A stretch of 64,000 bases of DNA from an uncultured Candidatus Actinomarina sp. (GTDB taxonomy: Bacteria; Actinomycetota; Acidimicrobiia; Actinomarinales; Actinomarinaceae), in NCBI GenBank assembly GCA_902533795.1, contig CACAND010000001.1:10159-74158 (forward strand). Reading direction: 5' to 3'. Under the pieces are notes generated by a model. The model was not told the DNA's origin. It made no database searches and saw only the letters and a list, made by a program, of their open reading frames with translations. The translations under genes and the position numbers were made by a program. This document shows, in pieces, positions 7,811 through 55,780 of the stretch (positions are counted from its first letter, which is position 1; each line of letters opens with the position of its first letter).

Positions 7811-7823
7811 TGCATTTTATTAT

Positions 7824-37995: not shown

Positions 37996-38534
37996 TTACT
38001 TGGTGTCCAATCATTTTCAAACTCTCTAGCTAGCATCCATAATAAGTCAGAGAGTCTGTTTAAATAAACAATTACCTCAGAATCGTTAATTTCTAAATGC
38101 TTTTGCCATCTTACACATTTTCTCTCTGCTCTTCTAGAAACTACTCTTGCCCAATCAAATTTTGCTGATATTTCATTTTCACCGGGGACAACAAAAAACT
38201 CTGGAATGCCATTTTTCTCTTCAAGAAAATCAATATCTTTCTCAAGTCTCAAAACCATCTTTTCTTCAACTAATGTTTCGTCAGGCTTTAATTTTTTTCT
38301 ATTTTCTTTTGTTGTTGCTAATTCAGCTCCAACAATAAATAATTCACGCTGAATACGAAGGACATTTTCTTTAACTTCAATTGGTAAATTATTGTCAGCT
38401 CTGATTAAACCTAATGCAGCAACAAGTTCATCAACGGATCCATAGGCATCTGGAGCTAGATCATCTTTTGATACTTTATCTCCAAAAAGCATCCTTGTTT
38501 GACCTTTATCTCCTTTTTTTGTATAAATCTTCAT
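37992..38534 (-). CDS. ATP:cob(I)alamin adenosyltransferase, PduO-type
   Basis: The true start is the internal Met (MKIYTKKGDKGQTRM...). The N-terminal motif and the LRIQRELFIVGAELA helix bundle are typical of PduO/MMAB. Confidence 0.7.
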   Translation of the reverse strand: MKIYTKKGDKGQTRMLFGDKVSKDDLAPDAYGSVDELVAALGLIRADNNLPIEVKENVLRIQRELFIVGAELATTKENRKKLKPDETLVEEKMVLRLEKDIDFLEEKNGIPEFFVVPGENEISAKFDWARVVSRRAERKCVRWQKHLEINDSEVIVYLNRLSDLLWMLAREFENDWTPSK

Positions 38535-38550
38535 AACAATAAATATAGTC

Positions 38551-39204
38551 TTAGGACAAAAGTAACAGACCTCCAGAAGCACCCAGAGAAACTATTAATG
38601 ATAGATAGCTAAGCCCAGTTGATGCCATTACTCCTGTATATGATTTTTCTCCAAGGGATTTGAAGGATGCAAAAGATAAGATGGAGGTAGAAAAATATAA
38701 AAATAAAACTACATTTTTGTACAGGATTTCAATATCTTCACCAATAAATTCAAAAAAGACTAAAGGTATGATTATTAAAGATTGAAGAGTGGAAAATAGT
38801 GCGATTTTCTTCATCCCTTGTTTTGATATTGTAGGATCAACTAAGAACCAATGACCTATCATCATTGAAGAAAAGACTCCACTAATCAAAGATATAGGAA
38901 ATATATTACTCAATATCAAATTAAATAAACTTACATCTAACTCAATTAAGAGTTGATAATTTAAAATTATAAAACTGGTCCCATATAAATATGTGTAATA
39001 TTTTTTGTTATCTATGAAGAGACTTAAGATTAATGGAACAATGCCAAAAATACTCAATATAGTAAATTTCAAAATTGCAACTGACGAAATTACAGAAATA
39101 AAGAGAATGCTGAAACCTTTTCGAGGTTGGATACGAAAATTTGAATACAGTAAGTAAGGTATGCAAAAAATCAACAAAACATAAACAAATAGGTTCAATT
39201 CCAT
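38551..39204 (-). CDS. polytopic membrane protein, hypothetical
   Basis: 217 aa with about 6 TM helices. No recognisable motif. Confidence 0.35.
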   Translation of the reverse strand: MELNLFVYVLLIFCIPYLLYSNFRIQPRKGFSILFISVISSVAILKFTILSIFGIVPLILSLFIDNKKYYTYLYGTSFIILNYQLLIELDVSLFNLILSNIFPISLISGVFSSMMIGHWFLVDPTISKQGMKKIALFSTLQSLIIIPLVFFEFIGEDIEILYKNVVLFLYFSTSILSFASFKSLGEKSYTGVMASTGLSYLSLIVSLGASGGLLLLS

Positions 39205-39605: not shown

Positions 39606-42566
39606 ATGTTACGGGGCATTTCAAAAAAAATAAGTTTTATATTCCTTTTAGGAATGTTTTTATCTTTCTTAGGCCAAACGGAAGCTCACTCAAAGACAAT
39701 AATAAGATACGATATAAACCTTAACTGTGCCGAAAATGCTGTTGCCCCTCTAAACACAATCAAAGATATTCAAACATTTTTAAATTGTAATGGTTTTAGT
39801 CCAGGACCCATTGATGGTGTTTCTGGAGGAAGAACAGATGCTGCCGTAAAAAGTTTTCAAGCTTCCGTTGGACTTTCTGCAGATGGTGTTGTTGGTCCAG
39901 CTACAAAACAAGCAATGAGAAGCTACAGTTCGGTTTCATTTACTTTTACTGGAAGTGGATGGGGCCATGGTGTAGGTTTAAGTCAATACGGAACAAAAGG
40001 TCTTACAGAACTTGGTGCACAATTTTGTAGCAACACAAGTTCGTGTAGCTCTAGTGAGGTTGTAAATTATTACTTTCAAGGTACAAATGTTAAAAATTTA
40101 GGAGATATATCTTTGTCCTCTCCAGATATTGCATCAAGTAATAATGCACTTTGGGTAGGTTTAGCCAGAAATGCAAAAAATATAACTTTAACGACCCTTC
40201 CTTCTTCTAGCCCACCAACCCTTCAAATTTGTCAAGATGGATTATCAAACACAGCTGGTGTACAGCTATTTTTAACATCAAGAGGTTTTGAACCAGGACC
40301 AATTGATGGTGCTTATGGAGATAAAACTGCTGATGCTATCAGGAGTTACCAGGCATCAGTTGGCTTAGGTCAAACTGGAGCGATTAATGATGAACTGGTC
40401 AACAAAGTTAAATCTGATGCTTCATCTGATGGTCCATGTGAGTCTGTTTGGGGACCACTAAAAATCAGTGGTGGCGCAACTATAAATATTGTAAGTGGAG
40501 GAAATGGATGTTACATGACAGGTCACCCTATTGTTCCAAAAATTAGTGCTAGCTGCAATATGAGTATTAAATGGTCAGATGGTGGACGAATAAGAGTTGG
40601 TCCTCGTGAGCATAAACATGGAATTCTGAAATTGAGATCAAAAAATGTCTCATCAGGTTTTCATGTAGTGTTATCTGTTAATTTAGAAAAATACCTTTAT
40701 GGATTAGCAGAAATGCCCTCTCATTGGAATGTAAAAGCCTTAGAAGCTCAAGCTTTAGTTGGGAGAAGTTATGCAGTTTTTCACTATCTTGATGAAAATA
40801 TACCTTCCTCCGCAAATAACTTAGATGCAGGGCTAAGTGAAAAGCAAAAAGCCTATTGTTGGTGTCATATAGGATCAACCGCATCAAGTCAATACTATTA
40901 CGGATATCTTAAAGAAATTTCAGGTCCTAACTGGGTTCAAGCTGTAAATAATACATCTGGAAAAGTAATCACATACGATGGTTCCTACACACGGAGTGGA
41001 GTAATACAAGCATTTTATTCTTCTTCGACTGGAGGAAAAACTAACACTAATGTTGTAGGTTTTGGATCTGCAACGCCATGGCCTTATCTTAAAACTGTAG
41101 ATGATCCATGGTCGATAGATAATAGAGTAGGCAACTCTAAAGCTGCATGGTCTTTTGATTTTAATACCTATCAACTATCAAAAAATATCTTATGTGGTGA
41201 TACACCTTGTTTTGATGCTCTTACTGATATTTATGTTTCATCTGTTGCTGAATCTGGTGCTGCTTTGGAAGTTACAATGAAAGGTTTTAAAAATGGAGTA
41301 GCAAAATCAGTTACGAAGTCTGGCAGAAATATAAAATCTCAATTAGGTTTTAGATCGCACTATTTTAAAACTTCAAGCACATCTGATATATCAAACCTTG
41401 CTGTTGGTCCCGTACAAGCTAATACCTCTTCAAATGTAAATGGATCAACAGAAACTCTTTCGGCTGGAGAAACAGCACAATATGCTACTTCAAGTTCAGG
41501 ATTTTCATACCTAGCAAAAGCTGGTTTGATAAATAACTGTAGTAATAATTCCTCAGGGTGTCAGGCAAAAACATTAACCCGTGAAGAAGCAGCCGCAATA
41601 GTTACAGTAGTTGGAGGCATACCTCAAGACTCTCCAAATGCTTACAGTGATGACGACCAAAGCATCTATCAATCTGCAATTAACGGCTTGCCGTATTATG
41701 GAATGCAAGTATGTTTTGGAAGTCCATTCGAAATTTTACCAAAAGAAACTGTATCAAGAGAACAGTTTGCATGTTTAATCGTTCGATCTATAAACGCAGG
41801 ATCTACTAATAACCTAACTGGTTCAGAAGACAAATATTCTGATGATGGTGCAAGCAAATTTACTACTCCGATAAATACTTTAGCCGCAACTAATTCAATA
41901 CCGGCTTGCAGCTCTATAAATGATAAGTTTTGTCCTAGTAGAAAAATTTCAATTGGAGAGGTATCTTATATTATTGAAAAGCTCGTTAGTAAATCTTATA
42001 TATCATCTGATCTTTTTAATTCATCACCTTTCAATAATTCTTGGACACCTTTAAGCGGAGAAGTTGAAAATGTTACTGAGACAGCAGTTTCAAATCCTAA
42101 CGCTGGTAACGATGCTTGTGTGCCAAAAGATAATTCAGGACTAGTAATTAATTCAGTTTTAGATATTCAAAAATTTCTTTCAAATAACGGATTTAATCCG
42201 GGACCAATTGATGGCCAATCAGGGCCTAAGACAAAAGATGCAATAAGAGCTTTTCAGCAAAAAACTGGTCTTTACGCAGATGGAGTAGTTGGGCCTAAGA
42301 CAAAAGCTGCAATGAAGTCATATACAGGGTGTGAGTCAGGAAGTACATGTAAAGCAAGAGATAATACAAGTGCAAAATTAGATAGTGTATCTGGCATTCA
42401 AACATTTTTAGCAAATAATGGTTTTAATCCTGGAATTATTGATGGTGAAATGGGTTCTTATACAAGGGAAGCAATAAAAGCATTCCAAAGAAAAGTTGGT
42501 TTAATACCTGATGGAGAAGCGGGTACAAGAACAAAATCAGCAATGAAGTCGTATACAGGGTGCTAA
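39606..42566 (+). CDS. secreted SpoIID/LytB-domain protein with four peptidoglycan-binding (PG_binding_1) domains
   Basis: 986 aa. Signal peptide. PG-binding repeats (IQTFLNCNGFSPGPIDG...GVVGPATK) occur twice N-terminally and twice C-terminally. The central SpoIID/LytB core carries GWGHGVGLSQYGTKG. Confidence 0.7.
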   Translation: MLRGISKKISFIFLLGMFLSFLGQTEAHSKTIIRYDINLNCAENAVAPLNTIKDIQTFLNCNGFSPGPIDGVSGGRTDAAVKSFQASVGLSADGVVGPATKQAMRSYSSVSFTFTGSGWGHGVGLSQYGTKGLTELGAQFCSNTSSCSSSEVVNYYFQGTNVKNLGDISLSSPDIASSNNALWVGLARNAKNITLTTLPSSSPPTLQICQDGLSNTAGVQLFLTSRGFEPGPIDGAYGDKTADAIRSYQASVGLGQTGAINDELVNKVKSDASSDGPCESVWGPLKISGGATINIVSGGNGCYMTGHPIVPKISASCNMSIKWSDGGRIRVGPREHKHGILKLRSKNVSSGFHVVLSVNLEKYLYGLAEMPSHWNVKALEAQALVGRSYAVFHYLDENIPSSANNLDAGLSEKQKAYCWCHIGSTASSQYYYGYLKEISGPNWVQAVNNTSGKVITYDGSYTRSGVIQAFYSSSTGGKTNTNVVGFGSATPWPYLKTVDDPWSIDNRVGNSKAAWSFDFNTYQLSKNILCGDTPCFDALTDIYVSSVAESGAALEVTMKGFKNGVAKSVTKSGRNIKSQLGFRSHYFKTSSTSDISNLAVGPVQANTSSNVNGSTETLSAGETAQYATSSSGFSYLAKAGLINNCSNNSSGCQAKTLTREEAAAIVTVVGGIPQDSPNAYSDDDQSIYQSAINGLPYYGMQVCFGSPFEILPKETVSREQFACLIVRSINAGSTNNLTGSEDKYSDDGASKFTTPINTLAATNSIPACSSINDKFCPSRKISIGEVSYIIEKLVSKSYISSDLFNSSPFNNSWTPLSGEVENVTETAVSNPNAGNDACVPKDNSGLVINSVLDIQKFLSNNGFNPGPIDGQSGPKTKDAIRAFQQKTGLYADGVVGPKTKAAMKSYTGCESGSTCKARDNTSAKLDSVSGIQTFLANNGFNPGIIDGEMGSYTREAIKAFQRKVGLIPDGEAGTRTKSAMKSYTGC
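42140..42563 (+). repeat. tandem duplicated about 60-aa peptidoglycan-binding module at the C-terminus of the SpoIID-domain protein (each copy ends MKSYTGC)
   Basis: Direct protein-level repeat: ...IQKFLSNNGFNPGPIDGQSG...KAAMKSYTGC followed by ...IQTFLANNGFNPGIIDGEMG...KSAMKSYTGC. Confidence 0.6.
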
Positions 42567-44476
42567 TTAATTAATTTTTCTATTTCCTTTGATATTTTTT
42601 CTGCTGTAAATTCAAATTCTTTTTTAAGATCCTCAATTGGAGCTGATTTTCCAAATGAATTAATTGAAAAAGACTTTTTAATGTTCTTTATATAAGAATC
42701 CCATCCGACTGATCTCCCAAGTTCAATTGTAAATATTTCAGAATTTGGATTTAATAAATTTAAAGTTTCATTGTTTAATTTGTCAAGTATCGGGACACTG
42801 ATAATCTGAATTGATAAATCATGAAGCATATTACTGACATCTTGAGCAATTTCTAATTCAGATCCTGTTGCGAATATAGTGATATCTTGACCTGGAGAAA
42901 ATTCATATGCTCCCCTAATAAACTCTTCGTATTGTAAGTTGTTTTCCAAATATTTCATATCTTGTCTTGAAAGAACAAGTGCTGTTGGATTATTTTTATT
43001 TTCAAAAGCAAACCGATACGCATAAAGAATCTCATTATTGTTTGCTGGTCTAATTACCTCGAGGCCTGGTATGAGCCTTAAGGACATAAGATGTTCTATT
43101 GGCTGGTGTGTTGGGCCATCTTCACCTAAAAAGATTGAATCATGTGTAAATATAAATACTGAATTTGTCTTCATCAATGATGCAAGTCTTAAGCTCGGTC
43201 TCATGTAATCTGAAAATACTAAAAATGTAGACCCATAGGGCATTAAGTTGCTGTGTAAAGCAATACCGTTAACAATTCCACCCATGGCATGTTCTCTAAT
43301 ACCAAACTCAAGAGTTTTTCCGCTATAATTTTGAGATCCAAAAACTTCATCACTCACAATCTGCTTTGTTGAAGCTGCCAGATCAGCTGACCCACCAATG
43401 ATAAATTTATTTGATTTGCCTATTTCATTTAAAATTTTTCCGCCAACCACTCTTGAAGCTTGATCGTCAGACCATTCAAGTGATAGAGATTGAAAATCAA
43501 TATTATTAAATTCCTCCCACAGAATTTTAAAATTTACATCATTACTTATTTTTTTGTCTAAATTTGCTTTCCAATCCTGAAATGTCTTGTTATCTCTTTC
43601 TCTTTCATTGTTAAAGTAATCGTATACATCTGAACTATGAGCAAAAGGGTCACCAGAATAACCAATATTTTCTAAAAATAGCTCAAATTCCTTTCCCCCT
43701 AAAGGTGAGCCATGTACACCACTTGAATTTGCTTTATTGGGTGAGTATTTTCCAATCGTTGATTTTGCAATGATTAATGATGGCTTGTCAGTGATTTTTT
43801 GTGCATGATTTATTGCATCAATTATTTCTGATTCTTGATGTCCATCTATTTCGAGAACATCCCAGCCCATGGACAAAAACTTGTTTTTTTGATTTGTAAT
43901 TGAAACTTTTGTTACGTTTCCATCTATAGAAATATTGTTATCATCAAAAAAATAAATTATTTTTCCAAGTTTCCATAGGCCTGCAAGCTCTGCTGCTTCT
44001 GTTGATATTCCCTCCATCAAATCACCATCAGAGACAATTCCATAAATATAGTGATCAATAATGTCTTCTCCAAGAACACTGGAAAGATATCTTTCAGCTA
44101 CCGCTAAGCCAACACCATTTGCAAAGCCTTGACCAAGTGGACCTGTTGTAGTGTCAATACCAAGTTGAAAATCTTTTTCAGGATGTCCTGCAGTGACAGA
44201 TCCTAATTGACGAAAATTTTTTATATCATCCATTGAAATATCAAAACCATTGAAGTGTAGAAGGCTATATAAAAGCATAGAACCATGTCCTGCACTTAAT
44301 ACAAATCTATCTCTGTTTATCCAATCTGGATTTTTGTTTGAAGCTTTAAATGCATTTTTATAAATTGCAACACCAACGTCAGCCATTCCTAACGGCATGC
44401 CAGGATGACCTGAATTTGCTTTTTCTACCGCTGCAGCAGAAAGGACTCTTACAGACTTTGTTACATTGTCAAACAT
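42563..44476 (-). CDS. tkt: transketolase
   Basis: 637 aa. N-terminus RVLSAAAVEKANSGHPGMPLGMADV and the TPP-binding GDG region of transketolase. Confidence 0.9.
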   Translation of the reverse strand: MFDNVTKSVRVLSAAAVEKANSGHPGMPLGMADVGVAIYKNAFKASNKNPDWINRDRFVLSAGHGSMLLYSLLHFNGFDISMDDIKNFRQLGSVTAGHPEKDFQLGIDTTTGPLGQGFANGVGLAVAERYLSSVLGEDIIDHYIYGIVSDGDLMEGISTEAAELAGLWKLGKIIYFFDDNNISIDGNVTKVSITNQKNKFLSMGWDVLEIDGHQESEIIDAINHAQKITDKPSLIIAKSTIGKYSPNKANSSGVHGSPLGGKEFELFLENIGYSGDPFAHSSDVYDYFNNERERDNKTFQDWKANLDKKISNDVNFKILWEEFNNIDFQSLSLEWSDDQASRVVGGKILNEIGKSNKFIIGGSADLAASTKQIVSDEVFGSQNYSGKTLEFGIREHAMGGIVNGIALHSNLMPYGSTFLVFSDYMRPSLRLASLMKTNSVFIFTHDSIFLGEDGPTHQPIEHLMSLRLIPGLEVIRPANNNEILYAYRFAFENKNNPTALVLSRQDMKYLENNLQYEEFIRGAYEFSPGQDITIFATGSELEIAQDVSNMLHDLSIQIISVPILDKLNNETLNLLNPNSEIFTIELGRSVGWDSYIKNIKKSFSINSFGKSAPIEDLKKEFEFTAEKISKEIEKLIN

Positions 44477-44497
44477 TGCTTTAAGTATATTTATTAA

Positions 44498-46195
44498 TTA
44501 AATAGAGGCAAAGGAATCTTTTGCGTGATAAGAAGATCTTACAAGTGGGCCAGATTCAATATGCGGGATACCTAGCTCTTGACCAATAATTTTGTATTCT
44601 TCAAATTCTTCTTTAGGTGCATATCTATGGATAGGTCTGTGCCTTTGTGTAGGTCTTAAATACTGCCCGATTGTTACAATATCAATATCAATTTGAGATA
44701 AATCTTTTAAAACTGAAACTACTTCCTCAAACTCTTCACCCATTCCTAAAATTAAGCCTGTTTTCGTCTTGCCAAGAAAGTGAGAATCTTTTGCATATTG
44801 AAGCAAAGAAAGTGATCGTCCATATGAAGCTGCAGTTCTTATTTCTCTTTGTAATCTTGGGACCGTCTCAAGATTGTGGTTTAATACTTCTGGATTTGCA
44901 TTTATTATGTTATCTATCGCACCTCTATCTCCTTTAAAGTCAGGTACTAATACTTCAACTGAAGTTTGAGGATTCATATACTTAACTTCATCTATTGTTT
45001 TTGCGAAGAAATTTGAACCACCATCCTGTAGGTCATCTCTATTGACTGAGGTAATCACTGCATGAGTAAGCCCCATAATTTTTACACTTTCAGCAACTCT
45101 ATATGGCTCATCCATATCAAGAACTGTGGGTTTACCAGTATTTACATCACAAAATCCACAGGCTCTTGTACATGTTTCACCCATAATCATAAATGTTGCA
45201 GTGCCCATCGACCAACATTCGTAGATATTTGGACATGAAGCTTCTTCACAAACTGTATTCAATCTTTTTTCTTTAATCAAACTTTTGAGTGATAGATAAT
45301 CTTTTCCTAAGTTTGCTTTAACCTTCATCCATTCGGGTCTCGCAGGTTCATTTATTATTCTTGGTTCGGTAGAAACCGAACATTCGGGTCTTTCGAGTTC
45401 ATTTTTAGTGGTTTGGTTAATAGTCAATGAAATTCCATTCTTTGAAGAATCAAAAACACCTTTTTCAACTAGTTTATCAATGTCAAATTCCTTTTTTTTC
45501 TTCAGCTGTCGTGGTGTAAATTGTGCAAATTGTTCATCAACTTTTTTATATTCAAATATTTCTAAAAACTTTTTTGAAATTATATCGGTTACTTCTTTAA
45601 ATGAAATATCCTTGTCATAATTTTGAATTGCGACAATTCTTTCTTCACTGTCACCACAGGGATTTATGAAATCGTAACCTTTCGTATTATCTGTAATATT
45701 TAATGAAAAGCCGTGAAATGTAGTCCATTTGCTAACCTTAATTCCAATTGATGCTATTTTTCCATCTTTTGTCCAAACACCTGTATCGTCATGTTTTGAG
45801 AAAGCACAAATTGAAAATGTTGATAATGTATCGATTATGACTTTCTCAATTTTTCTAACAAACGGAATTACTTTTTTTGGATCATCTAATCTAATTATTG
45901 GATACCCAATTAATTGTCCATCCCCATGAAAAGTAATGTCACCTCCTCTATCGGTTTCATAAAATTCAATATTATTTTTATTTAATGTATCTTCGGAAAC
46001 TAAAAGATTATTCTTATCGCCTGATCTTCCAATAGTTATTACATTGTTATGTTCTAGTAAAAGCAAGTAATCATAATTAGATTTCTCAGAGCTTATTGAT
46101 GAATGCAGTCCTTTTTGAAGATCAATTGCTTCTTTATATGGAAGTTTTCCCAGCCATCTAATATTTAATTCTCTCAAGATATTTCCTGAGACCAA
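44498..46195 (-). CDS. lipBA: fused octanoyltransferase LipB / lipoyl synthase LipA
   Basis: 565 aa. The N-terminal approx 220 aa carry LipB motifs (ETDRGGDITFHGDGQLIGYPI; catalytic-type FINPCG). The C-terminal approx 320 aa carry the LipA radical-SAM motif CTRACGFC and the auxiliary cluster CEEASCPNIYEC. Confidence 0.8.
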   Translation of the reverse strand: MVSGNILRELNIRWLGKLPYKEAIDLQKGLHSSISSEKSNYDYLLLLEHNNVITIGRSGDKNNLLVSEDTLNKNNIEFYETDRGGDITFHGDGQLIGYPIIRLDDPKKVIPFVRKIEKVIIDTLSTFSICAFSKHDDTGVWTKDGKIASIGIKVSKWTTFHGFSLNITDNTKGYDFINPCGDSEERIVAIQNYDKDISFKEVTDIISKKFLEIFEYKKVDEQFAQFTPRQLKKKKEFDIDKLVEKGVFDSSKNGISLTINQTTKNELERPECSVSTEPRIINEPARPEWMKVKANLGKDYLSLKSLIKEKRLNTVCEEASCPNIYECWSMGTATFMIMGETCTRACGFCDVNTGKPTVLDMDEPYRVAESVKIMGLTHAVITSVNRDDLQDGGSNFFAKTIDEVKYMNPQTSVEVLVPDFKGDRGAIDNIINANPEVLNHNLETVPRLQREIRTAASYGRSLSLLQYAKDSHFLGKTKTGLILGMGEEFEEVVSVLKDLSQIDIDIVTIGQYLRPTQRHRPIHRYAPKEEFEEYKIIGQELGIPHIESGPLVRSSYHAKDSFASI

Positions 46196-47436
46196 TCGGT
46201 ACTTTCAATTCTTGTTTTAATTGAATTTAAAAATAACAAAGCAGTAGAACCATCAAAAACTCTATGATCCCATGTCAAACTCAGTATCCCAATATGCCTA
46301 ATTGAAATTGAATCTGATCCATCTTCTATCTCAATCACAACTGGACGCTTTTTCACTGATTCCGTTGAAAGAATAGCAACGTTTGGTTGATTGATTATTG
46401 GTGATGTTAAAAATGAATTGAAGGATCCATTGTTTGATATCGTAAATGTACTCCCCGACACATCGTCTAGGTTGTAACTTCCATCTCTAAGAAGAGCTGA
46501 AATCTCAGATATCTTTCTAGCCGTGCCAGTAAGATTATAAGAATCAGCCTCCTTTATTGTTCCAACAAGTAATCCCTCTTGGTTTATGTCGACTGCAATA
46601 CCCAATTGAATATTCTCGTGAATCAAATGAACATTTTTATCTAAATCAAAAGAGCTATTAACAACAGGAAATTCTCTTAAAGCGCTAACTACAGCTTTTG
46701 CAATGAATGGAAGATATGTAAGTGAAAAATTGTTTTCATTTTTAAAATTATCTTTAACTTTACTTCTTAAATTCTCTACGTTTTCAAAATCAACTTCAAC
46801 TGAAGTCATTACATGCGCAGAAGTTTGCTTTGAGTGAATCATGTTTTCAGCAATTTTCTTACGTAATCTAGGTATCTCGCCTGTATTTGTTGACTTATTA
46901 TTATCAGCAACTTCCTTCGGTTTTTGGTGACCATTATTTAAATACTTATCTATATCTTTTCTTGTAACTCGACCATCTTTTCCTGTGCCAGTAACTTGAA
47001 GTAGATCTATATTATTTTCTGAGGCAAGTTTTCTTACGACAGGTGAGACTTTGCCCAAGGCTTGAGTACTTTGTATAGTTTTGCTTTCAGTTACAGTCTG
47101 TTCATTTTCAAAAATTTCTTGAGCCGGTTCTTCTGTTTTTTCTATTTTGTCTTCTTGTTCTACTGATTGAGTTGCTTCAGCATTTAAGTTTTTGGTAGAA
47201 GTTCCGCCTAACTCTAATAATGGAGATCCTACTTCAACTGTCTCACCCTCTTCAACTAATAAAGCAGAAACAGTTCCGTTAAAGGGGCTAGGCACTTCAG
47301 TATCAACCTTATCGGTTGAAATTTCTAAGATTGGATCGTCTTCTTTAATTTCATCACCAACTTTTACAAGCCAGCGCAAAATAGTTCCCTCAGTAACAGT
47401 TTCTCCTAGTTGTGGCATTGTTATGCGTTCACTCAT
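46174..47436 (-). CDS. dihydrolipoamide acyltransferase (E2) of a 2-oxoacid dehydrogenase complex
   Basis: 420 aa. N-terminal lipoyl domain (EISTDKVDTEVPSP). Linker and PSBD (SPVVRKLASENNIDL). C-terminal catalytic domain with DHRVFDG. Confidence 0.85.
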   Translation of the reverse strand: MSERITMPQLGETVTEGTILRWLVKVGDEIKEDDPILEISTDKVDTEVPSPFNGTVSALLVEEGETVEVGSPLLELGGTSTKNLNAEATQSVEQEDKIEKTEEPAQEIFENEQTVTESKTIQSTQALGKVSPVVRKLASENNIDLLQVTGTGKDGRVTRKDIDKYLNNGHQKPKEVADNNKSTNTGEIPRLRKKIAENMIHSKQTSAHVMTSVEVDFENVENLRSKVKDNFKNENNFSLTYLPFIAKAVVSALREFPVVNSSFDLDKNVHLIHENIQLGIAVDINQEGLLVGTIKEADSYNLTGTARKISEISALLRDGSYNLDDVSGSTFTISNNGSFNSFLTSPIINQPNVAILSTESVKKRPVVIEIEDGSDSISIRHIGILSLTWDHRVFDGSTALLFLNSIKTRIESTDWSQEIS

Positions 47437-47440
47437 AATT

Positions 47441-49447
47441 TTATTGTAATTCTTTTATGGCATTTACAACTTTTTGAACACTTGGAATAAATGCATCTTC
47501 AAGCACTGGTGCGAAAGGAATATGTGTATTTGGTGATGTTATTTTTATAATTGGATTGTCTAGATCCCAAAATCCTTTCTCAGCAATTAGAGATGATATT
47601 TCTGAAGCTACAGATGAGAAAGGGACATCTTCTTGTAAAATACATACATTTGACGTCTTCGCTACAGATTTCAATATAATTTCTTCATCTAATGGGACTA
47701 TCGTTCTTATGTCCACAATTTCAACTGAAATATCTTCTTTTTCAAGAATGTTTGCTGCTTCTTCAGCAACAGAAACCATTCCTGACCAGGTAACAATTGT
47801 TACATCCGAACCTTCTTTGACTATTCTACCTTTACCAATTTCCACTTCATATAACCCAATTGGAACATCCATTTTTAAGTCTGGTTTTCTATAAAGTTTT
47901 TTATGTTCAAGATACATAACAGGATTTGGATCATTAACAGCTGCAACAAGTAGCCCTTTTGCATCATATGGGTTTGATGGAGCAACAACTTTTATACCCG
48001 GATGGTGTGCAAGTAATGACTCTGGGCTAATTGAATGAAAAGGTCCCGAACGTGTACCAGCACCAGTTGGACCTCTCACAACCATTGGAACAGCTTTGCC
48101 AGCTTTCCAATGATATTTTGCTGCTTCAGTAGTTAATTGATCAAGTGCGGGATACACAAAATCATAAAATTGTAACTCAACAATTGGTTTTTGGCCAGCT
48201 AAAGCAGCTCCCACTGCCGCACCTGTGAAGCCACCTTCTGAAATTGCTGTGTCTATAACTCTAAATGGACCATATTTTTCAAAAAGCCCTTTTGTTGCTT
48301 TGAATGCCCCTTCGAAAACACCTACATCTTCTCCCATAATGAAAACACTTTCATCCTTTTTCATCAATTCATCTAGTCCATTATTTAAGGCTTCTATAAA
48401 GTTCATTGTTTGTAAATTATTTTCTTTATTTTCAATTACAGGGATAGTTCTCTTAGCGAACATATCATTTAATTCATCTTTTGGATCTGGCTCCTCTTGG
48501 GTTTTAGCCCACTCAAGAGTTTCCTTTATTTCAGTTTCTAAATCACTTTCTAATTGAATAAAATCATCCTCACTAAACAATCCTTCAGTTAAAAGGGAAT
48601 CTTCAAATCTTGCAATCGGGTCTCTTTTCATCCAGAAATCTCTTACTTCATCTTCAACATAATCTGCAGGATCATGACCAGCGTGTCCATAATGTCTAAA
48701 AGTAACTAATTCGATTAAGGTTGGACCTTTACCTTTTCTAGCATTTTCGCATGCCTCATGGATTGAATCAATAACGTCATAGATATCATTACCATCAATA
48801 ATTAATGACGGAATACCATAACCTGCTCCTCTATCTGCAACATTTGGTGTCCCAAACTCAGTTTCATTGGGTGATGAATAGGCAAATTGATTATTTTGAA
48901 CTGTAAAGACAACTGGTAAATTTAATACTCCAGCCATGTTTACACTTTCATGCCATGTGCCTGTCGCAGTAGCACCTTCTCCACAATTAGCTATAGCAAC
49001 CACTCCACTTCCCTGTTGTTGTGATGCAAGCGCCCAACCAACTGCAACTGGTGCTGAGTCAGGTAATGGAGATACAACCATCAAGGTCCCCTTGTCAACT
49101 ACACCAAAGTGACTATTACCATCTCGTCCTTTTGAAGGTCCGTCTTTTTTTCCAAAAAAATTAAGTGCAACTTCTTTTAGTGTTACCCCTTTCATTAATT
49201 GAACTCCAAGATCTCTATGAGTGCCGCCAAAAATATCTTTGTCATCCATTCCAGCACCAATACCAGCCATAGAGGCTTCTTGCCCTATACCTGGATATAC
49301 AGCTCCACTCAGTTGTCCCCCTTTATACATTTTTAATAATCTGTCTTCAAGAAGTCTTTGAGTTTTCATAGACTTATAAATTTCCCATAACTGCTCATTA
49401 GAAAGTTCTGATGAATATCCTTTTCTAACAATCTTTTCAATTTGCAT
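47441..49447 (-). CDS. 2-oxoacid dehydrogenase E1 component with fused alpha and beta subunits (TPP-dependent)
   Basis: 668 aa. The N-terminal half has the E1-alpha TPP-binding region (GEGATATGTWHESVNMA...). The C-terminal half is E1-beta-like (VFIMGEDVGVFEGAFKATKGL...FRVIDTAISEGGFTGAA). Confidence 0.8.
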   Translation of the reverse strand: MQIEKIVRKGYSSELSNEQLWEIYKSMKTQRLLEDRLLKMYKGGQLSGAVYPGIGQEASMAGIGAGMDDKDIFGGTHRDLGVQLMKGVTLKEVALNFFGKKDGPSKGRDGNSHFGVVDKGTLMVVSPLPDSAPVAVGWALASQQQGSGVVAIANCGEGATATGTWHESVNMAGVLNLPVVFTVQNNQFAYSSPNETEFGTPNVADRGAGYGIPSLIIDGNDIYDVIDSIHEACENARKGKGPTLIELVTFRHYGHAGHDPADYVEDEVRDFWMKRDPIARFEDSLLTEGLFSEDDFIQLESDLETEIKETLEWAKTQEEPDPKDELNDMFAKRTIPVIENKENNLQTMNFIEALNNGLDELMKKDESVFIMGEDVGVFEGAFKATKGLFEKYGPFRVIDTAISEGGFTGAAVGAALAGQKPIVELQFYDFVYPALDQLTTEAAKYHWKAGKAVPMVVRGPTGAGTRSGPFHSISPESLLAHHPGIKVVAPSNPYDAKGLLVAAVNDPNPVMYLEHKKLYRKPDLKMDVPIGLYEVEIGKGRIVKEGSDVTIVTWSGMVSVAEEAANILEKEDISVEIVDIRTIVPLDEEIILKSVAKTSNVCILQEDVPFSSVASEISSLIAEKGFWDLDNPIIKITSPNTHIPFAPVLEDAFIPSVQKVVNAIKELQ

Positions 49448-50811
49448 TAATGTAATCCTTTCCCAGTTAAGCCAAGTAACGATTCGCCAACTGCCTCGCT
49501 TAATGTTGGATGTGCATGAATAAATTCTGCTGCCTCTTCTGGCAAAGCTTCCCAGCCAACCATATACATTATTTCATGTATCATTTCTCCAGCTGAAGGA
49601 CCACATATACTTGCTCCAACTATTGGGCCTTCTTTTTCTGAATAAACTTTTACTAGTCCTTGATTTTGCTCAGTAATCATTGCTCTTCCAATGCCAGCAA
49701 AGCTATGTTGTGATTGATCAATTTCGATATCATTTAACTTTGCTTTTTCAACATTTAAACCAACCTCTGCGAGTTCCGGCCTTGTATAAACAACATATGG
49801 GATAGCATTGTAATCAAGTGGCTTCTTGTCACCAGTTGCAATAAATGTGACCGCAGAAATTGATTCTGCAAATGCTGCATGAGCTAATTGAGGTGTGTTA
49901 GCGACAATATCTCCTAAAGCAAAAATATTTTCTTCTGAAGTTTGAAACGTTTCTAGGTCAACATTTATAAAACCATTTTCAGTAACAATATTTACATTGT
50001 CCAATCCAATATTTTCAGTCAACGGTGATCTACCAATAGCAACCAAAACAGAATCATATTCTTTAGTTTCGTTATCTGAAAAACTAACTTGTTTGTCATC
50101 TATCTTTTCAATTGAAGTATTTAATTTAAATTCGACTCCTCGTTTTGAAAGCTGTTTTCTTAACTCACCAGATGTTCTTTTATCTAATCCTGGAAGGATC
50201 TCTTTGGCAATCTCTACAACTGTAACTTCTGAACCAAGATCATTAAGCAAGCTTGCAAATTCACAACCAATTGCACCGGCACCAACAATACAAACTCTTT
50301 TGGGTGGCTCTTCCCAATTAAGAGCAGTGTCTGATGTAACTATAAAGTTTTCATCTATTTTAATATCAGGCAGCTCTCTTGGTTTAGAGCCTGTAGCAAG
50401 GAGGATATAATCACTTTCTACTTTTTCAGTTGAGCCATCAGATTTATTTACTAAAACGGTATTTTTATTTTCAATGGAACCCCAGCCTTCAATAACTTTT
50501 ACTTTTTTACCCTTTAAAAGTGTCTTAATTCCAGAAACTAGTTTATCAATTACCTCAATTCTTTTTAATGAGGTTTTTTTCCAATCAATTGTTTTATTTT
50601 CAATATTTATTCCATAGTTGCTAGAGTTGGAAATTTCATGATTTATCTCAGCAACATGAAGCCAATATTTTGCAGGAATACAGCCACGATTTAAACAAGT
50701 CCCCCCTAAAACATCGGATTCAATTAAGGTAATTTCTAGATCAAAGTTGTGAGCATATAATGCTGCGGCATAACCAGCTGGGCCACCGCCAATAATTGTT
50801 AATTTTTTCAA
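49447..50811 (-). CDS. lpd: dihydrolipoyl dehydrogenase (E3)
   Basis: 454 aa. Redox-active disulfide GGTCLNRGCIPAK, FAD and NAD Rossmann motifs, C-terminal HAHPTLSE. Confidence 0.9.
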   Translation of the reverse strand: MKKLTIIGGGPAGYAAALYAHNFDLEITLIESDVLGGTCLNRGCIPAKYWLHVAEINHEISNSSNYGINIENKTIDWKKTSLKRIEVIDKLVSGIKTLLKGKKVKVIEGWGSIENKNTVLVNKSDGSTEKVESDYILLATGSKPRELPDIKIDENFIVTSDTALNWEEPPKRVCIVGAGAIGCEFASLLNDLGSEVTVVEIAKEILPGLDKRTSGELRKQLSKRGVEFKLNTSIEKIDDKQVSFSDNETKEYDSVLVAIGRSPLTENIGLDNVNIVTENGFINVDLETFQTSEENIFALGDIVANTPQLAHAAFAESISAVTFIATGDKKPLDYNAIPYVVYTRPELAEVGLNVEKAKLNDIEIDQSQHSFAGIGRAMITEQNQGLVKVYSEKEGPIVGASICGPSAGEMIHEIMYMVGWEALPEEAAEFIHAHPTLSEAVGESLLGLTGKGLH

Positions 50812-50975
50812 ATTACCTCTTTCAAGATAGGGTCGCTATCAAATCGAGATAATAACTGCAACACATTTAGGGGTTCCCTGTATGTATTGGTCAAAGTTAT
50901 TGTCATTATTAAATCTAATGGAAAAGATGCTTACATCCAACTCAGGATAACTCATTAATCAGATACAATATTGCT

Positions 50976-51062
50976 ATGCAAACAAGACATCTTATAATTG
51001 CTTCTTTAGTTACCGCAATTGTAATTGTTGTTGCATTTGGTGTTTGGGTCATGACTAATTAA
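50976..51062 (+). CDS. possible 28-aa single-TM micropeptide (MQTRHLIIASLVTAIVIVVAFGVWVMTN)
   Basis: Short ATG...TAA ORF in the 250-nt divergent intergenic region. It ends 1 nt before the MBL-fold gene start. No good SD is evident. Too short for the ORF track. Confidence 0.2.
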   Translation: MQTRHLIIASLVTAIVIVVAFGVWVMTN

Positions 51063-51063
51063 G

Positions 51064-52020
51064 TTGAAGAACTTTAATCTTGGTCATGGAATTTTACATT
51101 TTCCGTTAAAACTCCCCTGGAGTCCACCCGGATTTGTAAATATTTATCTTATTGAGGATAATGATGGCTACATCATGATTGACTGTGGTGTAAATGGAGA
51201 TAAATATTTTCATGATCTAAAAGTAAATTTAAACAATCTAAACATACAACTTTCAGATATTAAATTGCTAATTGGAACACATTTACATTCTGACCATGTC
51301 GGGCTTTCAACTGTTCTAAGAAATGAGGGAATAAAATTCGGCCTTTATAAAAACGCACCCGATTTTATTCCACGTTACAATGACTGGACATCTCGTTTTA
51401 AAGCAATAGGTGAATATGCTAAAAAACAAGGAGCACCAAAGGAGTTTTTAGACGATATGAACTCCATAACTACTCCAACTACAACTGGAAAAATTACACC
51501 CCCAGAAATATTATTTGATGAAGGAAAGATCAAGAATATAAATAGAGATATACAAGTTATATTTACACCTGGTCATGACATATCAGAAATTTCATTACTT
51601 GACGAGTCAAGTAAAATTATTTTTTCTGGTGATCATGTCCTTCCACGAATAACTCCATTCATCCCTCTTCATGATGAAGAAACTGATATGTTGTCTAACT
51701 ATGTAAATTCTTTAGAAAAAGTAAATAATATTGAACACGATAAAATTGCTCCCGGACATTTTGAAGTTATTGACAGTCCGCACAATAGAATTGAGCAAAT
51801 TCTTTTACATCATGAGAAAAGATCAAAAAAGATTATAGATATTTTATCAAATGGTTCTTTGACAGGATGGGAAGTAACACAAAGTTTGTTTTCTAGACCG
51901 CTTGATTCATGGAATTTACGTATGGCCTTTCAAGAAACAATGGCTCATTTGAAATATATAGAATCTCAAGGAATAATCAAACAAAACGGATCGAAAACAA
52001 TTACCTGGGAAGTTATTTAA
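51064..52020 (+). CDS. MBL-fold metallo-hydrolase
   Basis: 318 aa. HLHSDH (HxHxDH) metallo-beta-lactamase motif and later His/Asp ligands. Confidence 0.7.
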   Translation: MKNFNLGHGILHFPLKLPWSPPGFVNIYLIEDNDGYIMIDCGVNGDKYFHDLKVNLNNLNIQLSDIKLLIGTHLHSDHVGLSTVLRNEGIKFGLYKNAPDFIPRYNDWTSRFKAIGEYAKKQGAPKEFLDDMNSITTPTTTGKITPPEILFDEGKIKNINRDIQVIFTPGHDISEISLLDESSKIIFSGDHVLPRITPFIPLHDEETDMLSNYVNSLEKVNNIEHDKIAPGHFEVIDSPHNRIEQILLHHEKRSKKIIDILSNGSLTGWEVTQSLFSRPLDSWNLRMAFQETMAHLKYIESQGIIKQNGSKTITWEVI

Positions 52021-52221: not shown

Positions 52222-53343
52222 TTATAAACTAAGAAGTCTAGCAACATCATCTCTGGCAGATTTTGATGTGCCAAAAATTAAAGAGTCCGACTTTGCCTTC
52301 TTGAAGTAGAGATGTGCTGGATGTTCCCAAGTGAATCCTATACCTCCATGAACTTGAATTGTATCCCCAGCAACTTTATTAAAAACTTCAGAGCAATATG
52401 CTTTAGCCATTGAGGAGCTCATCTCAAGTTCTATTGGATCGTCAATATCAACTCTCACAGAACTGTAAGCTATTGATTTAGCACTTTCGATCTGTAAAAC
52501 CATGTCTGCGCACATGTGTTGAATAGCCTGGAATGAGCCAATAGGTCTTCCAAACTGTATTCTTTCTTTCGCATATTCTGTAGACATATCCAAGCATGCT
52601 TGAGCACCACCAACTTGTTCCATTGATAGAAATGATAGGGATATATGTTTTACTTTATTCCATAAATTGTTGTCTTCATTTATGTCAAACATAAAATTAT
52701 CTTTAGTTATTTCTACATCTTGAAAATTGATTTCTGTCATTGGTCTGGATTGGTCTAAAGAAGTTGTTTCCTTTATTAAAATACCGGGAGTTTCTTTTTC
52801 AACTAACAAAAATTTAAATCCATCAGTCCCTTTTGCAAGAACAGCAATTAAATCTGATGAGTCTCCAAACATAACGTAGCTTTTATTTCCATTCAACAAA
52901 TAACCCTTCTCACTTGTTTCGAATGTAGTCTCAATATTTTGGTCATCAATTTCATACTTGTCATTTTCATAGATCGCATAAGTTCCAATTTTTGATCCGG
53001 TTATTATATCTTGTAGATATTTTGTTTTTAAGTCATCCTCGGAATGAAGTAACAGCTGTTTGAAAACTACTCCGGAACTAAAAAATGGAACTATTGGCAT
53101 ATAATAACCAAATACTTCAGACAGAATTGAAGAGTCGATTTGTGAAAATCCCAATCCGCCATCTTGTTCAGGTACATCAAGGCCTAACCAACCTTGCTCA
53201 TTAATAAGCTGCCATAAATCAGTATCAATTCTTGTATTGTCATCAAACTTCTTAATCAGTTCAAGTAAATCTACTTTTTCAGATAACAACTTAGTAGCAT
53301 TTTCTTTAATTTCGTTTTGTAAATCTGTAAGACTAAATTGCAT
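52222..53343 (-). CDS. acyl-CoA dehydrogenase family protein
   Basis: 373 aa. C-terminal QVHGGIGFTWEHPAHLYFKKAKS is typical of the ACAD C-terminal helical domain. Confidence 0.65.
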   Translation of the reverse strand: MQFSLTDLQNEIKENATKLLSEKVDLLELIKKFDDNTRIDTDLWQLINEQGWLGLDVPEQDGGLGFSQIDSSILSEVFGYYMPIVPFFSSGVVFKQLLLHSEDDLKTKYLQDIITGSKIGTYAIYENDKYEIDDQNIETTFETSEKGYLLNGNKSYVMFGDSSDLIAVLAKGTDGFKFLLVEKETPGILIKETTSLDQSRPMTEINFQDVEITKDNFMFDINEDNNLWNKVKHISLSFLSMEQVGGAQACLDMSTEYAKERIQFGRPIGSFQAIQHMCADMVLQIESAKSIAYSSVRVDIDDPIELEMSSSMAKAYCSEVFNKVAGDTIQVHGGIGFTWEHPAHLYFKKAKSDSLIFGTSKSARDDVARLLSL

Positions 53344-53418: not shown

Positions 53419-54144
53419 GTGTTAAAAATTGAAAATTTACATGCATCTGTTGAATCAACTTCAATAATTAAGGGAGTTAACTTAGAAATAAACCCAGGGG
53501 AAGTTCATGCAATTATGGGACCAAATGGTTCTGGAAAATCAACACTTGCAAACGTCTTAATGGGTAATCCAGTTTATGAAATTACAGAGGGAAAAATTAC
53601 ATTTATTGGAGAAGATATCACTGAAGAACCGGTAGATAATCGTGCAAAGAAAGGAATGTTTCTTGCTTTTCAATATCCAGAGTCAATACCTGGTGTGACA
53701 ATTGTAAATATGCTCAAAACTGCTCTTACCAATATCGAAGAAACTGAATATACCACTGTGGAACTTAGACTAAAAGTTGCAGAGGCAATGAAAGACTTAG
53801 GTCTTTCACCAGATTTTGTTGATAGATATTTAAATGATGGTTTCTCAGGAGGAGAACGAAAAAGAAATGAAATTCTACAACTTGCAGTTTTAAACCCTAA
53901 ACTTGCAATTCTAGACGAAACTGATTCAGGGCTTGATGTTGATGGTTTAAGAATTGTAGGAGAAGGAATTAGTAATTTAAGAACGCCAGATCGTGGTTAC
54001 CTTGTAGTAACTCATTACCAGAGATTATTGGAATATGTTAAACCAGATTACGTTCATGTATTTGTAGATGGAAATATTGTAGAAACTGGTGGCACAGAGT
54101 TATCTGATAAGCTAGAAAAAGAAGGGTACGAATCTTACCAATGA
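53419..54144 (+). CDS. sufC: Fe-S cluster assembly ATPase SufC
   Basis: 241 aa. GPNGSGKST Walker A, signature-like FSGGERKRNEILQ, D-loop/Walker B LAILDETDSGLD. Confidence 0.9.
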   Translation: MLKIENLHASVESTSIIKGVNLEINPGEVHAIMGPNGSGKSTLANVLMGNPVYEITEGKITFIGEDITEEPVDNRAKKGMFLAFQYPESIPGVTIVNMLKTALTNIEETEYTTVELRLKVAEAMKDLGLSPDFVDRYLNDGFSGGERKRNEILQLAVLNPKLAILDETDSGLDVDGLRIVGEGISNLRTPDRGYLVVTHYQRLLEYVKPDYVHVFVDGNIVETGGTELSDKLEKEGYESYQ

Positions 54145-55364
54145 GCAAATTTAAAAATATCAAAAAAGATTTTCCAATATTTGAGAGAGATATCAATGGT
54201 AATAAATTAACCTACTTGGATTCAGGAGCAACCTCACAAAAACCAAACTCTGTAATTGATAAAATGACTGAGATCTATAAATTTAATAATGCAAACGTAC
54301 ACAGAGGTACTTATGTTCTTTCAGCTGAAACGACTCAAGAATATGAGTCTGTACGAACTAAATTTCAATCTTTTTTAAATGCTTCTGAATCGGATGAGAT
54401 AATTTTTACAAAAGGTACAACCGAGGCTCTCAATTTTTTAGCTAACTCAATAGCAAATAAGTTTATGGGTGAAGGTGATGAAATTATTTTGTCAGAGATT
54501 GAACATCATGCGAATATTATTCCTTGGCAAATGGTGGCTGAAAAATATAAATTAAGCATTAAGTATGTAAAAGTAAACGAAGACTTTTCTTTAGATCTTG
54601 ATGATTTATCCTCCAAACTTTCTTCAAAAACAAAAGTCGTTTCAATTGTCGGTGAATCAAACCTATCGGGAATGCTTCCTGATATTAAAGAGATAAATAA
54701 TCTAGTAAGAGCAAACTCTGAAGCTTTATTAATTATTGATGGTGCACAGTTGGTTCCTCATAGAAAAGTTGATGTCCAGGATTTGGGAATTGATTTCCTA
54801 GTGTTCTCTGGACATAAGATGCTGGGTCCAACTGGTATAGGTGTAGTTTGGGGTAAAAAAGAACTTCTAAATTCTCTTGACCCTGTTTACGGTGGTGGCG
54901 ATATGATTGAAGAAGTTCATTATGATAAAGCCACTTGGGCACCAGTTCCTCATAAATTTGAGGCAGGGACTCCCCCTTATGTTGAAGCAATTGGTCTTGG
55001 AGCAGCCGTAGATTATTTACAAGATCTTGGGATGTCTGAAGTTGAAAAACATTCAGATGAATTGCGTGAATATGGTAGGAAAGTTCTTCTAGATATTGAT
55101 GGTGTAAATGTTATCCATTCTCAAGAAACTATTGCAGGATGTACTTTTGGGATGTATGTAGATGGTGTTCATGCGGCAGATCTTTCTTTAATGCTGGATA
55201 CACATGGGGTCGCTGTAAGAGCAGGTCATCATTGTGTACAACCATTTCATAGAAAATTAGGTATCGATGCAACAATTAGATCGACAGCTTACATTTATAA
55301 CGATAAAGAAGATATTGATACATTAAAGTCAGCACTTATATCAAGTGTCGAAATGCTGAGATAA
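54141..55364 (+). CDS. sufS: cysteine desulfurase SufS (class II)
   Basis: 407 aa. PLP-lysine region FLVFSGHKMLGPTGIG and the SufS-type active-site Cys loop RAGHHCVQP. Confidence 0.9.
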   Translation: MSKFKNIKKDFPIFERDINGNKLTYLDSGATSQKPNSVIDKMTEIYKFNNANVHRGTYVLSAETTQEYESVRTKFQSFLNASESDEIIFTKGTTEALNFLANSIANKFMGEGDEIILSEIEHHANIIPWQMVAEKYKLSIKYVKVNEDFSLDLDDLSSKLSSKTKVVSIVGESNLSGMLPDIKEINNLVRANSEALLIIDGAQLVPHRKVDVQDLGIDFLVFSGHKMLGPTGIGVVWGKKELLNSLDPVYGGGDMIEEVHYDKATWAPVPHKFEAGTPPYVEAIGLGAAVDYLQDLGMSEVEKHSDELREYGRKVLLDIDGVNVIHSQETIAGCTFGMYVDGVHAADLSLMLDTHGVAVRAGHHCVQPFHRKLGIDATIRSTAYIYNDKEDIDTLKSALISSVEMLR

Positions 55365-55366
55365 AA

Positions 55367-55780
55367 ATGTCTATAAGAGAAAAAGTCGATGAGTACAAAA
55401 AAATACTTGATATATTCCCTAACGATCAGGAGAAGTATCAATATTTAATTGAGAAAGCTAAAGAAAATGACTCATTTCCTTCAGAACTAAGATTAGATAA
55501 TTTCAAAGTAAATGGTTGTCAAAGTCAAGTTTGGCTTGTCCCTGAAGAAAAAGATGAAAAACTTTTCTTTAATAGTGATTCAGACGCTCTCATTGCAAAA
55601 GGATTAGTTACTTTGATTGCATCTATTTATTCGGACGAAAAGGCTGAAGATATCGTTTCAAATGAAATAGATTTAATGGAAGAGTTTGAATTAGGTGTGA
55701 TTTTAAGCCCTGCTCGAAGAAACGGTGCTTATAGTATGCTCAAAACAATTAAAGAATACGCAAAAAAACTAATTACTTAG
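55367..55780 (+). CDS. sufE: cysteine desulfuration sulfur-acceptor protein SufE
   Basis: 137 aa. Conserved SufE Cys motif VNGCQSQVWL. Confidence 0.75.
   Translation: MSIREKVDEYKKILDIFPNDQEKYQYLIEKAKENDSFPSELRLDNFKVNGCQSQVWLVPEEKDEKLFFNSDSDALIAKGLVTLIASIYSDEKAEDIVSNEIDLMEEFELGVILSPARRNGAYSMLKTIKEYAKKLIT

Follow-up and report, generated by a model that had tools for sequence, protein, structure and literature searches.

In actinobacteria, the genes for the E2 component (dihydrolipoamide acyltransferase) of a 2-oxoacid dehydrogenase complex, for octanoyltransferase and for lipoyl synthase occur in the order dlaT(sucB)-lipB-lipA, with lpd and pepA nearby; we take this to be the gene order of Mycobacterium tuberculosis, in which LipB (PDB 1W66) and LipA (PDB 5EXK) are stand-alone proteins. 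Three described systems contain comparable fusions: the "two-in-one" E2o-E1o proteins OdhA and KGD of the same phylum (PMC10415282), the 2-oxoisovalerate dehydrogenase E1 catalogued by KEGG as orthology group K11381, in which alpha and beta likewise share one chain, and the LplA-LipA proteins of NCBIfam model NF053790, in which a lipoyl-attachment enzyme of the same superfamily as LipB likewise lies N-terminal to LipA. Here, we analysed a stretch of 64,000 nucleotides (nt) from an uncultured Candidatus Actinomarina sp. of the order Actinomarinales, class Acidimicrobiia (hereafter the window; G+C content 32%), in which five genes keep the actinobacterial order of E2, octanoyltransferase and lipoyl synthase while additionally including an E1 gene and tkt. 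Unlike the stand-alone M. tuberculosis enzymes, LipB and LipA are here joined into one chain by a linker of ~70 residues, with identical catalytic residues, and the fusion partners are E1 alpha with E1 beta and LipB with LipA, rather than the E2 and E1 of OdhA/KGD. We are fairly confident that the cluster is an operon for a lipoate-dependent 2-oxoacid dehydrogenase complex, its cofactor-making LipB-LipA protein and a transketolase. The complex is built on the conserved actinobacterial lpd-E2-lipB-lipA neighbourhood; all of its component enzymes are known, and known mechanisms are not overturned. The genes, with protein lengths in amino acids (aa), are as follows.

49447-50811, minus strand: lpd, dihydrolipoyl dehydrogenase (E3), 454 aa, TTG start
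47441-49447, minus strand: E1 alpha-beta fusion, 668 aa, a single open reading frame (ORF)
46174-47436, minus strand: E2, dihydrolipoamide acyltransferase, 420 aa
44498-46177, minus strand: lipBA, bifunctional octanoyltransferase-lipoyl synthase, 559 aa from the TTG at 46177
44498-46195, minus strand: longer reading of lipBA, 565 aa, from an upstream TTG at 46195
42563-44476, minus strand: tkt, transketolase, 637 aa, last gene of the cluster

These co-oriented, compact minus-strand genes were found exactly where a first-pass annotation, made by a model from the letters alone, had placed them. The lpd and E1 genes overlap by 1 nt, 4 nt separate E1 from E2, the E2 and lipBA genes overlap, and a gap of 21 nt precedes tkt. 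All Actinomarinales loci that cover the whole region (~45 species representatives) share the order lpd-E1ab-E2-lipBA-tkt; in all Actinomarinales loci, tkt directly follows lipBA. Curated NCBIfam cut-offs were exceeded by the lipoamide dehydrogenase, LipB (TIGR00214), LipA (TIGR00510) and transketolase genes (for the last, TIGR00232 gave 689.9 bits against a cut-off of 682.25), and the catalytic signatures of Lpd, E1, E2 and both halves of LipB-LipA are intact. From this layout, we infer that the five genes are co-transcribed as one operon, probably expressed from a single leader whose structure hides the ribosome-binding site of lpd. The cluster had also been called a self-contained module, which does not fully hold, as imported thiamine and a supply of Fe-S clusters are needed.

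The distinguishing product of the cluster is the LipB-LipA protein, whose parts are listed here with their Pfam domains.

~45566-46138, minus strand: LipB half (LplA-B_cat, residues 20-210)
45344-45553, minus strand: LipB-LipA linker, ~70 aa, with the motifs SQFTPxQLK and IDxxVxxGVF and an A8 run
44507-45343, minus strand: LipA half (LIAS_N, residues 285-321; Radical_SAM, residues 336-499)

The succession of these domains within one ORF bears out the earlier reading of the 565-aa product as a LipB-LipA fusion, and the junction estimated at about 45520 falls within the linker. In a relative (locus L016), one of the first six codons of the 565-aa reading is a stop. Translation therefore most likely begins with the TTG at 46177, in overlap with the stop codon of E2 (T-TGA), giving a protein of 559 aa, the length of its closest database homologue. 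The LipB half scored 133.2 bits against TIGR00214 (cut-off 83.55) and matched Pfam PF21948 at 1.3e-37, and its catalytic dyad, Lys146/Cys180, lies in KIASIG (146-151) and PCG (179-181); from fold, cut-off and dyad it is predicted to be an octanoyl-acyl carrier protein (octanoyl-ACP):protein transferase. The LipA half scored 358.9 bits against TIGR00510 (cut-off 310.25) and contains the radical S-adenosylmethionine (SAM) motif CX3CX2C as CTRACGFC (342-349), the auxiliary-cluster motif CX4CX5C as CEEASCPNIYEC (316-327) and RSSY (553-556). Across 50 fused homologues (33-95% identity), both residues of the LipB dyad and, in LipA, the serine of RSSY and five cluster cysteines are invariant, and the sixth cysteine is kept in at least 90%. 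An AlphaFold2 model (predicted local distance difference test, pLDDT, 89.2; predicted template modelling score, pTM, 0.87) showed two folded domains connected by a low-confidence tether, with pLDDT <50 at residues 228-232 and 243-273. In Foldseek comparisons, the LipA half superposed on M. tuberculosis LipA 5EXK with a template modelling (TM) score of 0.92, a root-mean-square deviation of 1.0 Å and 48% identity, and the LipB half matched 2QHS (TM 0.93) and 1W66 (TM 0.84); no solved structure spanning both halves was among the structure matches.

Against NF053790, the window protein matched only profile positions 332-605, with 382.4 bits compared to a cut-off of 800, and judged by this profile it is not a member of that family. 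The N-terminal half of NF053790 proteins is an ATP-dependent ligase acting in scavenging, whereas that of the window protein is a LipB transferase of the de novo route. NCBIfam holds a curated model for the LplA-LipA form and none for the LipB-LipA form.

To place the fusion among its relatives, we searched 50%-identity cluster representatives exhaustively and considered the best 150 matches, 61 of which have the LipB-LipA architecture and seven the reverse order, LipA-LipB. Named LipB-LipA members belong to the Acidimicrobiia, Planctomycetota, Sumerlaeota and Elusimicrobia, and the database labels of such proteins read only "lipoyl synthase", "LipB, partial" or "hypothetical". When LipA domains were arranged by neighbour joining into a rough tree (146 leaves, without support values), the window sequence sat in a clade in which 20 of 25 members are fused, and the other fused forms were scattered, with ~29 state changes over the 146 leaves, a pattern which suggests that the fusion arose recurrently. 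Our literature search found no paper describing a LipB-LipA fusion and likewise nothing relevant on the fused E1, and the supplements of a 2020 genome paper contained none of the KEGG orthologues searched for. The arrangement had been described as unusual. It is only moderately so: the E1 fusion is already catalogued (K11381), and LipB-LipA is widespread but unnamed and uncharacterised.

Within the Acidimicrobiia, lipBA occurs as a single frame in seven deeper-branching loci (L045, L048, L049 and L054-L057) at 41-52% identity; there, the gene order is lpd-E2-lipBA or lpd-lipBA, without E1 in between. In L056, lpd-lipBA is followed by genes for cobalamin adenosyltransferase and leucyl aminopeptidase (pepA), and the same two genes also flank the window cluster, at 36652-38582. 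E1ab lies inside the cluster in Actinomarinales only, and only there does tkt directly abut lipBA; it lies 1-3 kb downstream in L045 and L049. Because the deeper Acidimicrobiia share lipBA, and L056 shares the pepA neighbours, both fusion and neighbourhood are old: the LipB-LipA fusion predates the divergence of Actinomarinales from other Acidimicrobiia and, being that old, is not a product of genome streamlining in the Actinomarinales.

The remaining proteins of the complex have the following parts.

~48482-49369, minus strand: E1 alpha part
48410-48481, minus strand: E1 junction
47468-48409, minus strand: E1 beta part
Residues 27-322, 347-520 and 538-660 of E1: E1_dh, Transket_pyr and Transketolase_C
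Residues 4-76, 130-162 and 183-412 of E2: Biotin_lipoyl, E3_binding and 2-oxoacid_dh

Lpd scored 464.7 bits against TIGR01350 (cut-off 408.8) and retains the redox motif CLNRGC and the HxxxxE motif. The three Pfam E1 domains in one ORF confirmed that E1 alpha and beta form a single 668-aa polypeptide, and the proposed junction (about 48440) falls within the inter-domain linker. The enzyme is a heterotetramer-type (alpha2beta2) thiamine diphosphate (ThDP) enzyme with both halves in one chain and a ThDP-binding motif, GEG...NN, at residues 156-186. Its length is 668 aa in all but 4 of 120 listed homologues, the exceptions having 629, 642 and 669 aa. We took its K11381 assignment from labels at JGI and in the supplement of a 2026 Actinomarina preprint. 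The name K11381 implies a substrate that is only putative for this lineage. The E1 gene of the window lies between lpd and a DlaT-like E2. This E2 has a single lipoyl domain, with its lipoyl-lysine at Lys43 (TDK), and the catalytic motif DHRVFDG; its best NCBIfam model, the actinobacterial SucB model TIGR02927, gave 346.9 bits, below the cut-off of 423.45. A 5-residue insertion in the catalytic domain is common to the window E2 and DlaT/AceF.

The defining feature of actinobacterial AceF/DlaT E2 proteins is a C-terminal insertion of three residues, Phe among them, which holds E2 in its trimeric state (PMC10415282). When the tail of the window E2, ESTDWSQEIS, is aligned to AceF ETANFE, Trp takes the place of the AceF Phe (Phe669). 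A C-terminal LExxDWxxE(L/I) with an invariant Trp is present in all Acidimicrobiia loci (46174-46300 in the window; loci L045-L059). As a sign of a trimeric, actinobacterial-type E2, this tail may serve as a lead rather than as a test. We also observed that the Trp occupies the trimer-insertion site of corynebacterial and mycobacterial E2, yet an OdhA-type E1 is reported to be absent from Actinomarina (2026 preprint).

In the mechanism that we propose, E1 would decarboxylate the 2-oxoacid and acylate the lipoyl arm of E2, E2 would transfer the acyl group to coenzyme A, and Lpd would re-oxidise the lipoyl arm using NAD+. The LipB half would move octanoate from octanoyl-ACP, via a Cys thioester, onto the lysine of the E2 lipoyl domain, where the tethered radical-SAM LipA half would next insert two sulfurs; the flexible linker of ~45-70 residues would hold both active sites close to one client domain, at a fixed 1:1 stoichiometry. 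E2 would not be the only client, since GcvH, a likely second one, is in the Actinomarina core gene list (2026 preprint). The first-pass annotation rightly placed the lipoylation gene directly downstream of the E2 that LipB-LipA modifies. Its mention of lipoate scavenging needed correction, as LipB is an octanoyl-ACP:protein transferase and LipB and LipA perform consecutive de novo steps.

A Suf cluster and an NfuA-like protein are relevant to rebuilding the sacrificial cluster of LipA. Genes for a SufC-like ABC ATPase, a SufS-type cysteine desulfurase and SufE form a cluster at 53419-55780 on the plus strand, 2.6 kb from the operon, and an NfuA-like protein (K07400) is in the Actinomarina core list (2026 preprint). 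Two ThDP enzymes, E1 and transketolase, are encoded in one operon (42563-49447), in a lineage reported to be without thiamine biosynthesis and even without a salvage kinase.

Two alternative accounts of the fusions bear on this mechanism. One holds that they are sequencing or assembly artefacts, created by a frameshift at the A8 homopolymer in the lipBA linker or by loss of the stop that would separate E1 alpha from E1 beta, and it draws on the position of that run and on a long-read assembly, control locus L059, in which lipBA is frameshifted and split over three frames. However, proteins of both fused lengths are encoded on hundreds of independently assembled contigs (ENA, JGI, TARA, NCBI and single-cell genomes), ~45 Actinomarinales species representatives carry lipBA as an unbroken frame, and in some species the A8 run is interrupted, reading QLKSK, QLKTT or QLKAS, with the same frame retained. 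The linker has a dN/dS of 0.05-0.30, compared to 0.02-0.18 in the catalytic domains; within this 210-nt segment, 5 and 12 stops occur in the two other frames, and the probability of a stop-free linker frame by chance is ~0.0025 per genome. By these measures, the linker is translated and evolves under purifying selection. Together with the persistence of the LipB-LipA fusion in high-GC Acidimicrobiia, at the 41-52% identity given above, these observations exclude a frameshift artefact at the junctions, and we regard an artefactual origin of the fusions as having a negligible chance. The other account accepts the fusion and considers it a neutral by-product of operon compaction through a lost stop, with two halves that work independently. 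In its favour, many bacteria carry lipB next to lipA, for example at the Neomarinimicrobiota control locus L060, where they are separate genes, and the scatter of fused forms on the LipA tree indicates that the fusion forms easily. The middle of the linker is also predicted to be disordered and tolerates a 17-aa in-frame insertion, which the alignment confines to a sub-clade of the window, L047 and L013. (This insertion resembles a duplicated NEPxRPEW LipA boundary, and a duplication is probable from that resemblance; a search of the linker with Tandem Repeats Finder gave no sign of the 51-nt duplication.) Against neutrality, several orders of Acidimicrobiia have retained the fusion, even in large high-GC genomes without streamlining pressure, the linker combines conserved motifs with purifying selection, and repeated independent origin in both orders (B-A and A-B) is expected if co-localisation is favoured; the pTM of the model may also hint at a defined inter-domain arrangement. 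We consider a neutral by-product rather unlikely.

Upstream of lpd, the operon begins with a conserved leader that contains the following elements; SD denotes the Shine-Dalgarno sequence.

50812-50900, minus strand: operon 5' leader, conserved, with covarying hairpins and a sequestered SD
50895-50900 with 50852-50857, minus strand: basal helix AAUAAC/GUUAUU
~50859-50889, minus strand: upstream covarying hairpin
50846-50853 with 50812-50819, minus strand: anti-SD AUUAUCUC paired with the SD region GAGGUAAU
50826-50840, minus strand: small covarying hairpin enclosed by the SD helix

These ~90 nt 5' of lpd are conserved far beyond expectation among species whose proteins are ~70% identical. The upstream hairpin folds in every species, and the sequence of its outer stem varies while complementarity is kept, with 8 of its 12 pairs changing on both sides. 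In a MAFFT alignment, 92% of cells were paired, compared to 44-57% when the partners were slid, and compensatory cells numbered 39, compared to 17.6+-2.9 in shuffles (0/500). The G.U wobbles of the leader stems pair on the lpd-sense strand only, and RNAalifold added the invariant 8-bp helix AUUAUCUC/GAGGUAAU. Folded alone, the window copy adopted the same structure at -23.2 kcal/mol (z = -3.9). A covariance model matched 39 Actinomarinales loci (92-115 bits), once in each and nowhere but upstream of lpd, and gave no match in deeper Acidimicrobiia or in the rest of the window. No leader match was found in Rfam, with nothing at E<=1 in 50700-51200; a transfer-messenger RNA (tmRNA) gene was the only match in the window above the gathering threshold, and the scan ruled out a thiamine pyrophosphate (TPP) or other known riboswitch in the leader. 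Taken as it stands, the leader is a candidate translational control element, specific to Actinomarinales, that would sequester the SD of lpd. We had considered a switch in which the basal helix would compete with the SD helix, and rejected it, as the two coexist in longer folds in 5 of 6 species; because of this coexistence, the evidence extends to SD sequestration and not to switching. In L034, a partial second lpd (685-1167; aa 294-454, 77% identity) lies upstream of the full-length lpd in place of the leader; it is at the edge of a single-cell contig and may be an amplification or assembly chimera.

The conserved element could instead be DNA, an operator or promoter of the divergent gene pair. 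It lies within a divergent intergenic region of 164 nt, and its most conserved blocks (GTGAMAATAAC and AGTTATTATCTC) hold -10-like hexamers. Operators, however, conserve sequence and not complementarity, whereas these stems vary between lineages and stay complementary; the strand-specific wobbles and a fold more stable than its shuffles also speak for RNA, and we consider a DNA element improbable. An equally unlikely extension of the candidate RNA element is a more elaborate scheme, in which the leader would be a switch responding to a ligand or protein (ThDP, acyl-CoA or redox) and acting on the sole lipoate-dependent complex of the cell, with LipB-LipA docked and processive on a trimeric E2 and with AceE/OdhA swapped for the fused E1.

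The substrate of the complex is probably pyruvate and/or branched-chain 2-oxoacids and, as the first-pass annotation anticipated, is not fixed by sequence, since neither PDB nor model scores separate pyruvate dehydrogenase (PDH) from branched-chain 2-oxoacid dehydrogenase (BCKDH). A pyruvate or mixed role has, in our estimate, nearly an even chance, and some other substrate is unlikely. For 2-oxoglutarate, this is because the E1 of 2-oxoglutarate dehydrogenase is reported to be absent from 84 complete Actinomarina genomes and KorAB is in the core gene list (2026 preprint); KorAB probably handles 2-oxoglutarate, and the sister order also relies on KOR. The main competitor is a dedicated branched-chain enzyme, with pyruvate oxidised elsewhere, for example by a 2-oxoacid:ferredoxin oxidoreductase, and with imported Leu, Ile and Val fed into acyl-CoA catabolism and branched fatty-acid primers. 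The K11381 label of E1 agrees with it, as do the E1-alpha matches in the PDB, which are led by Thermus BCKDH (166 bits) and human BCKDH (151), ahead of Geobacillus PDH (146) and human PDH (132). The best match of the E2 catalytic domain is Listeria BCKDH E2 (156 bits, compared to 145-149 for DlaT/AceF), an acyl-CoA dehydrogenase gene lies 1.4 kb upstream of the operon, and the lineage has several branched-chain amino-acid transporters and prefers and imports amino acids. These margins are small (166 vs 146 bits for E1; 156 vs 149 bits for E2), and the E2 lies in the dlaT/sucB-lipB-lipA neighbourhood typical of actinobacterial PDH/ODH E2, with which it has the insertion in common. E1-beta exceeded the cut-off of NF006667 (346 bits, above 321), a PDH model at subfamily level only and the sole NCBIfam match of E1 above cut-off, and the nearest annotated plasmid homologue is pdhA/pdhB. 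We place an exclusively branched-chain role somewhat short of an even chance, and we keep pyruvate, alone or with branched-chain 2-oxoacids, as our tentative preference. Two attempts at a decision were discarded: a 329-bit full-length PDB match to a 553-aa actinobacterial E2, which would have made the E2 PDH-type and had been inflated by lipoyl-domain matches, and similarity of E1 to PDB entries, which did not discriminate between BCKDH and PDH. For E1-beta, the latter gave 285 bits for a Pyrobaculum "PDH" and 266 for both Thermus BCKDH and Geobacillus PDH, and E1-alpha remained below the cut-offs of the PDH models TIGR03181 and TIGR03182 (256 and 232 bits, compared to 411 and 394).

Several points count against the overall interpretation given here. 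The promoter and terminator scans returned no more than the shuffled background, although we read the cluster as an operon. Covariation gives no information on the very helix that would hide the SD, as the anti-SD and SD strands are invariant. Structures of BCKDH and PDH match the two E1 halves with similar scores, the E2 catalytic domain is closest to a BCKDH E2, and the annotations conflict, with a KEGG-style 2-oxoisovalerate dehydrogenase label set against the NCBIfam PDH E1-beta subfamily model. This may be the sole such complex in the cell, with AceE and a second E2 presumed absent; the putative channeling from LipB to LipA is read from the architecture of the protein alone.

Other features of the window were also recorded. 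The acyl-CoA dehydrogenase gene (52222-53343, minus strand) lies upstream of the operon with a divergent gene for a metallo-beta-lactamase (MBL)-fold protein between them, and matched no specific NCBIfam equivalog. A hydrophobic ORF of 28 aa that had not been listed, MQTRHLIIASLVTAIVIVVAFGVWVMTN, shortly precedes the MBL-fold gene, at 50976-51062 on the plus strand; it is conserved as protein in 13 of 13 Actinomarinales species checked and is probably a real small membrane protein. The tmRNA gene, at 7823-8163 on the minus strand, encodes the tag peptide AKPKLAVAA. Near the cluster are two plus-strand ORFs of 986 aa each, 33695-36655 and 39606-42566, which we considered as paralogues and found to be unrelated (E = 0.12); the second combines SpoIID with four peptidoglycan-binding repeats.

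The most useful outcomes of this analysis are the leader RNA and an annotation gap. Labelling LipB-LipA proteins "lipoyl synthase" hides half of the pathway and makes false calls of LipB absence possible, a gap that a curated LipB-LipA model, like that for LplA-LipA, would mend. As a natural covalent pair, LipB-LipA also lends itself directly to experiments on whether channeling links octanoylation with sulfur insertion at the lipoyl domain. The photoheterotroph Actinomarina is very abundant, and its ~1 Mb of DNA encodes few regulators; whether its complex oxidises pyruvate or branched-chain 2-oxoacids, and how the operon is controlled, bear on the carbon that it uses.

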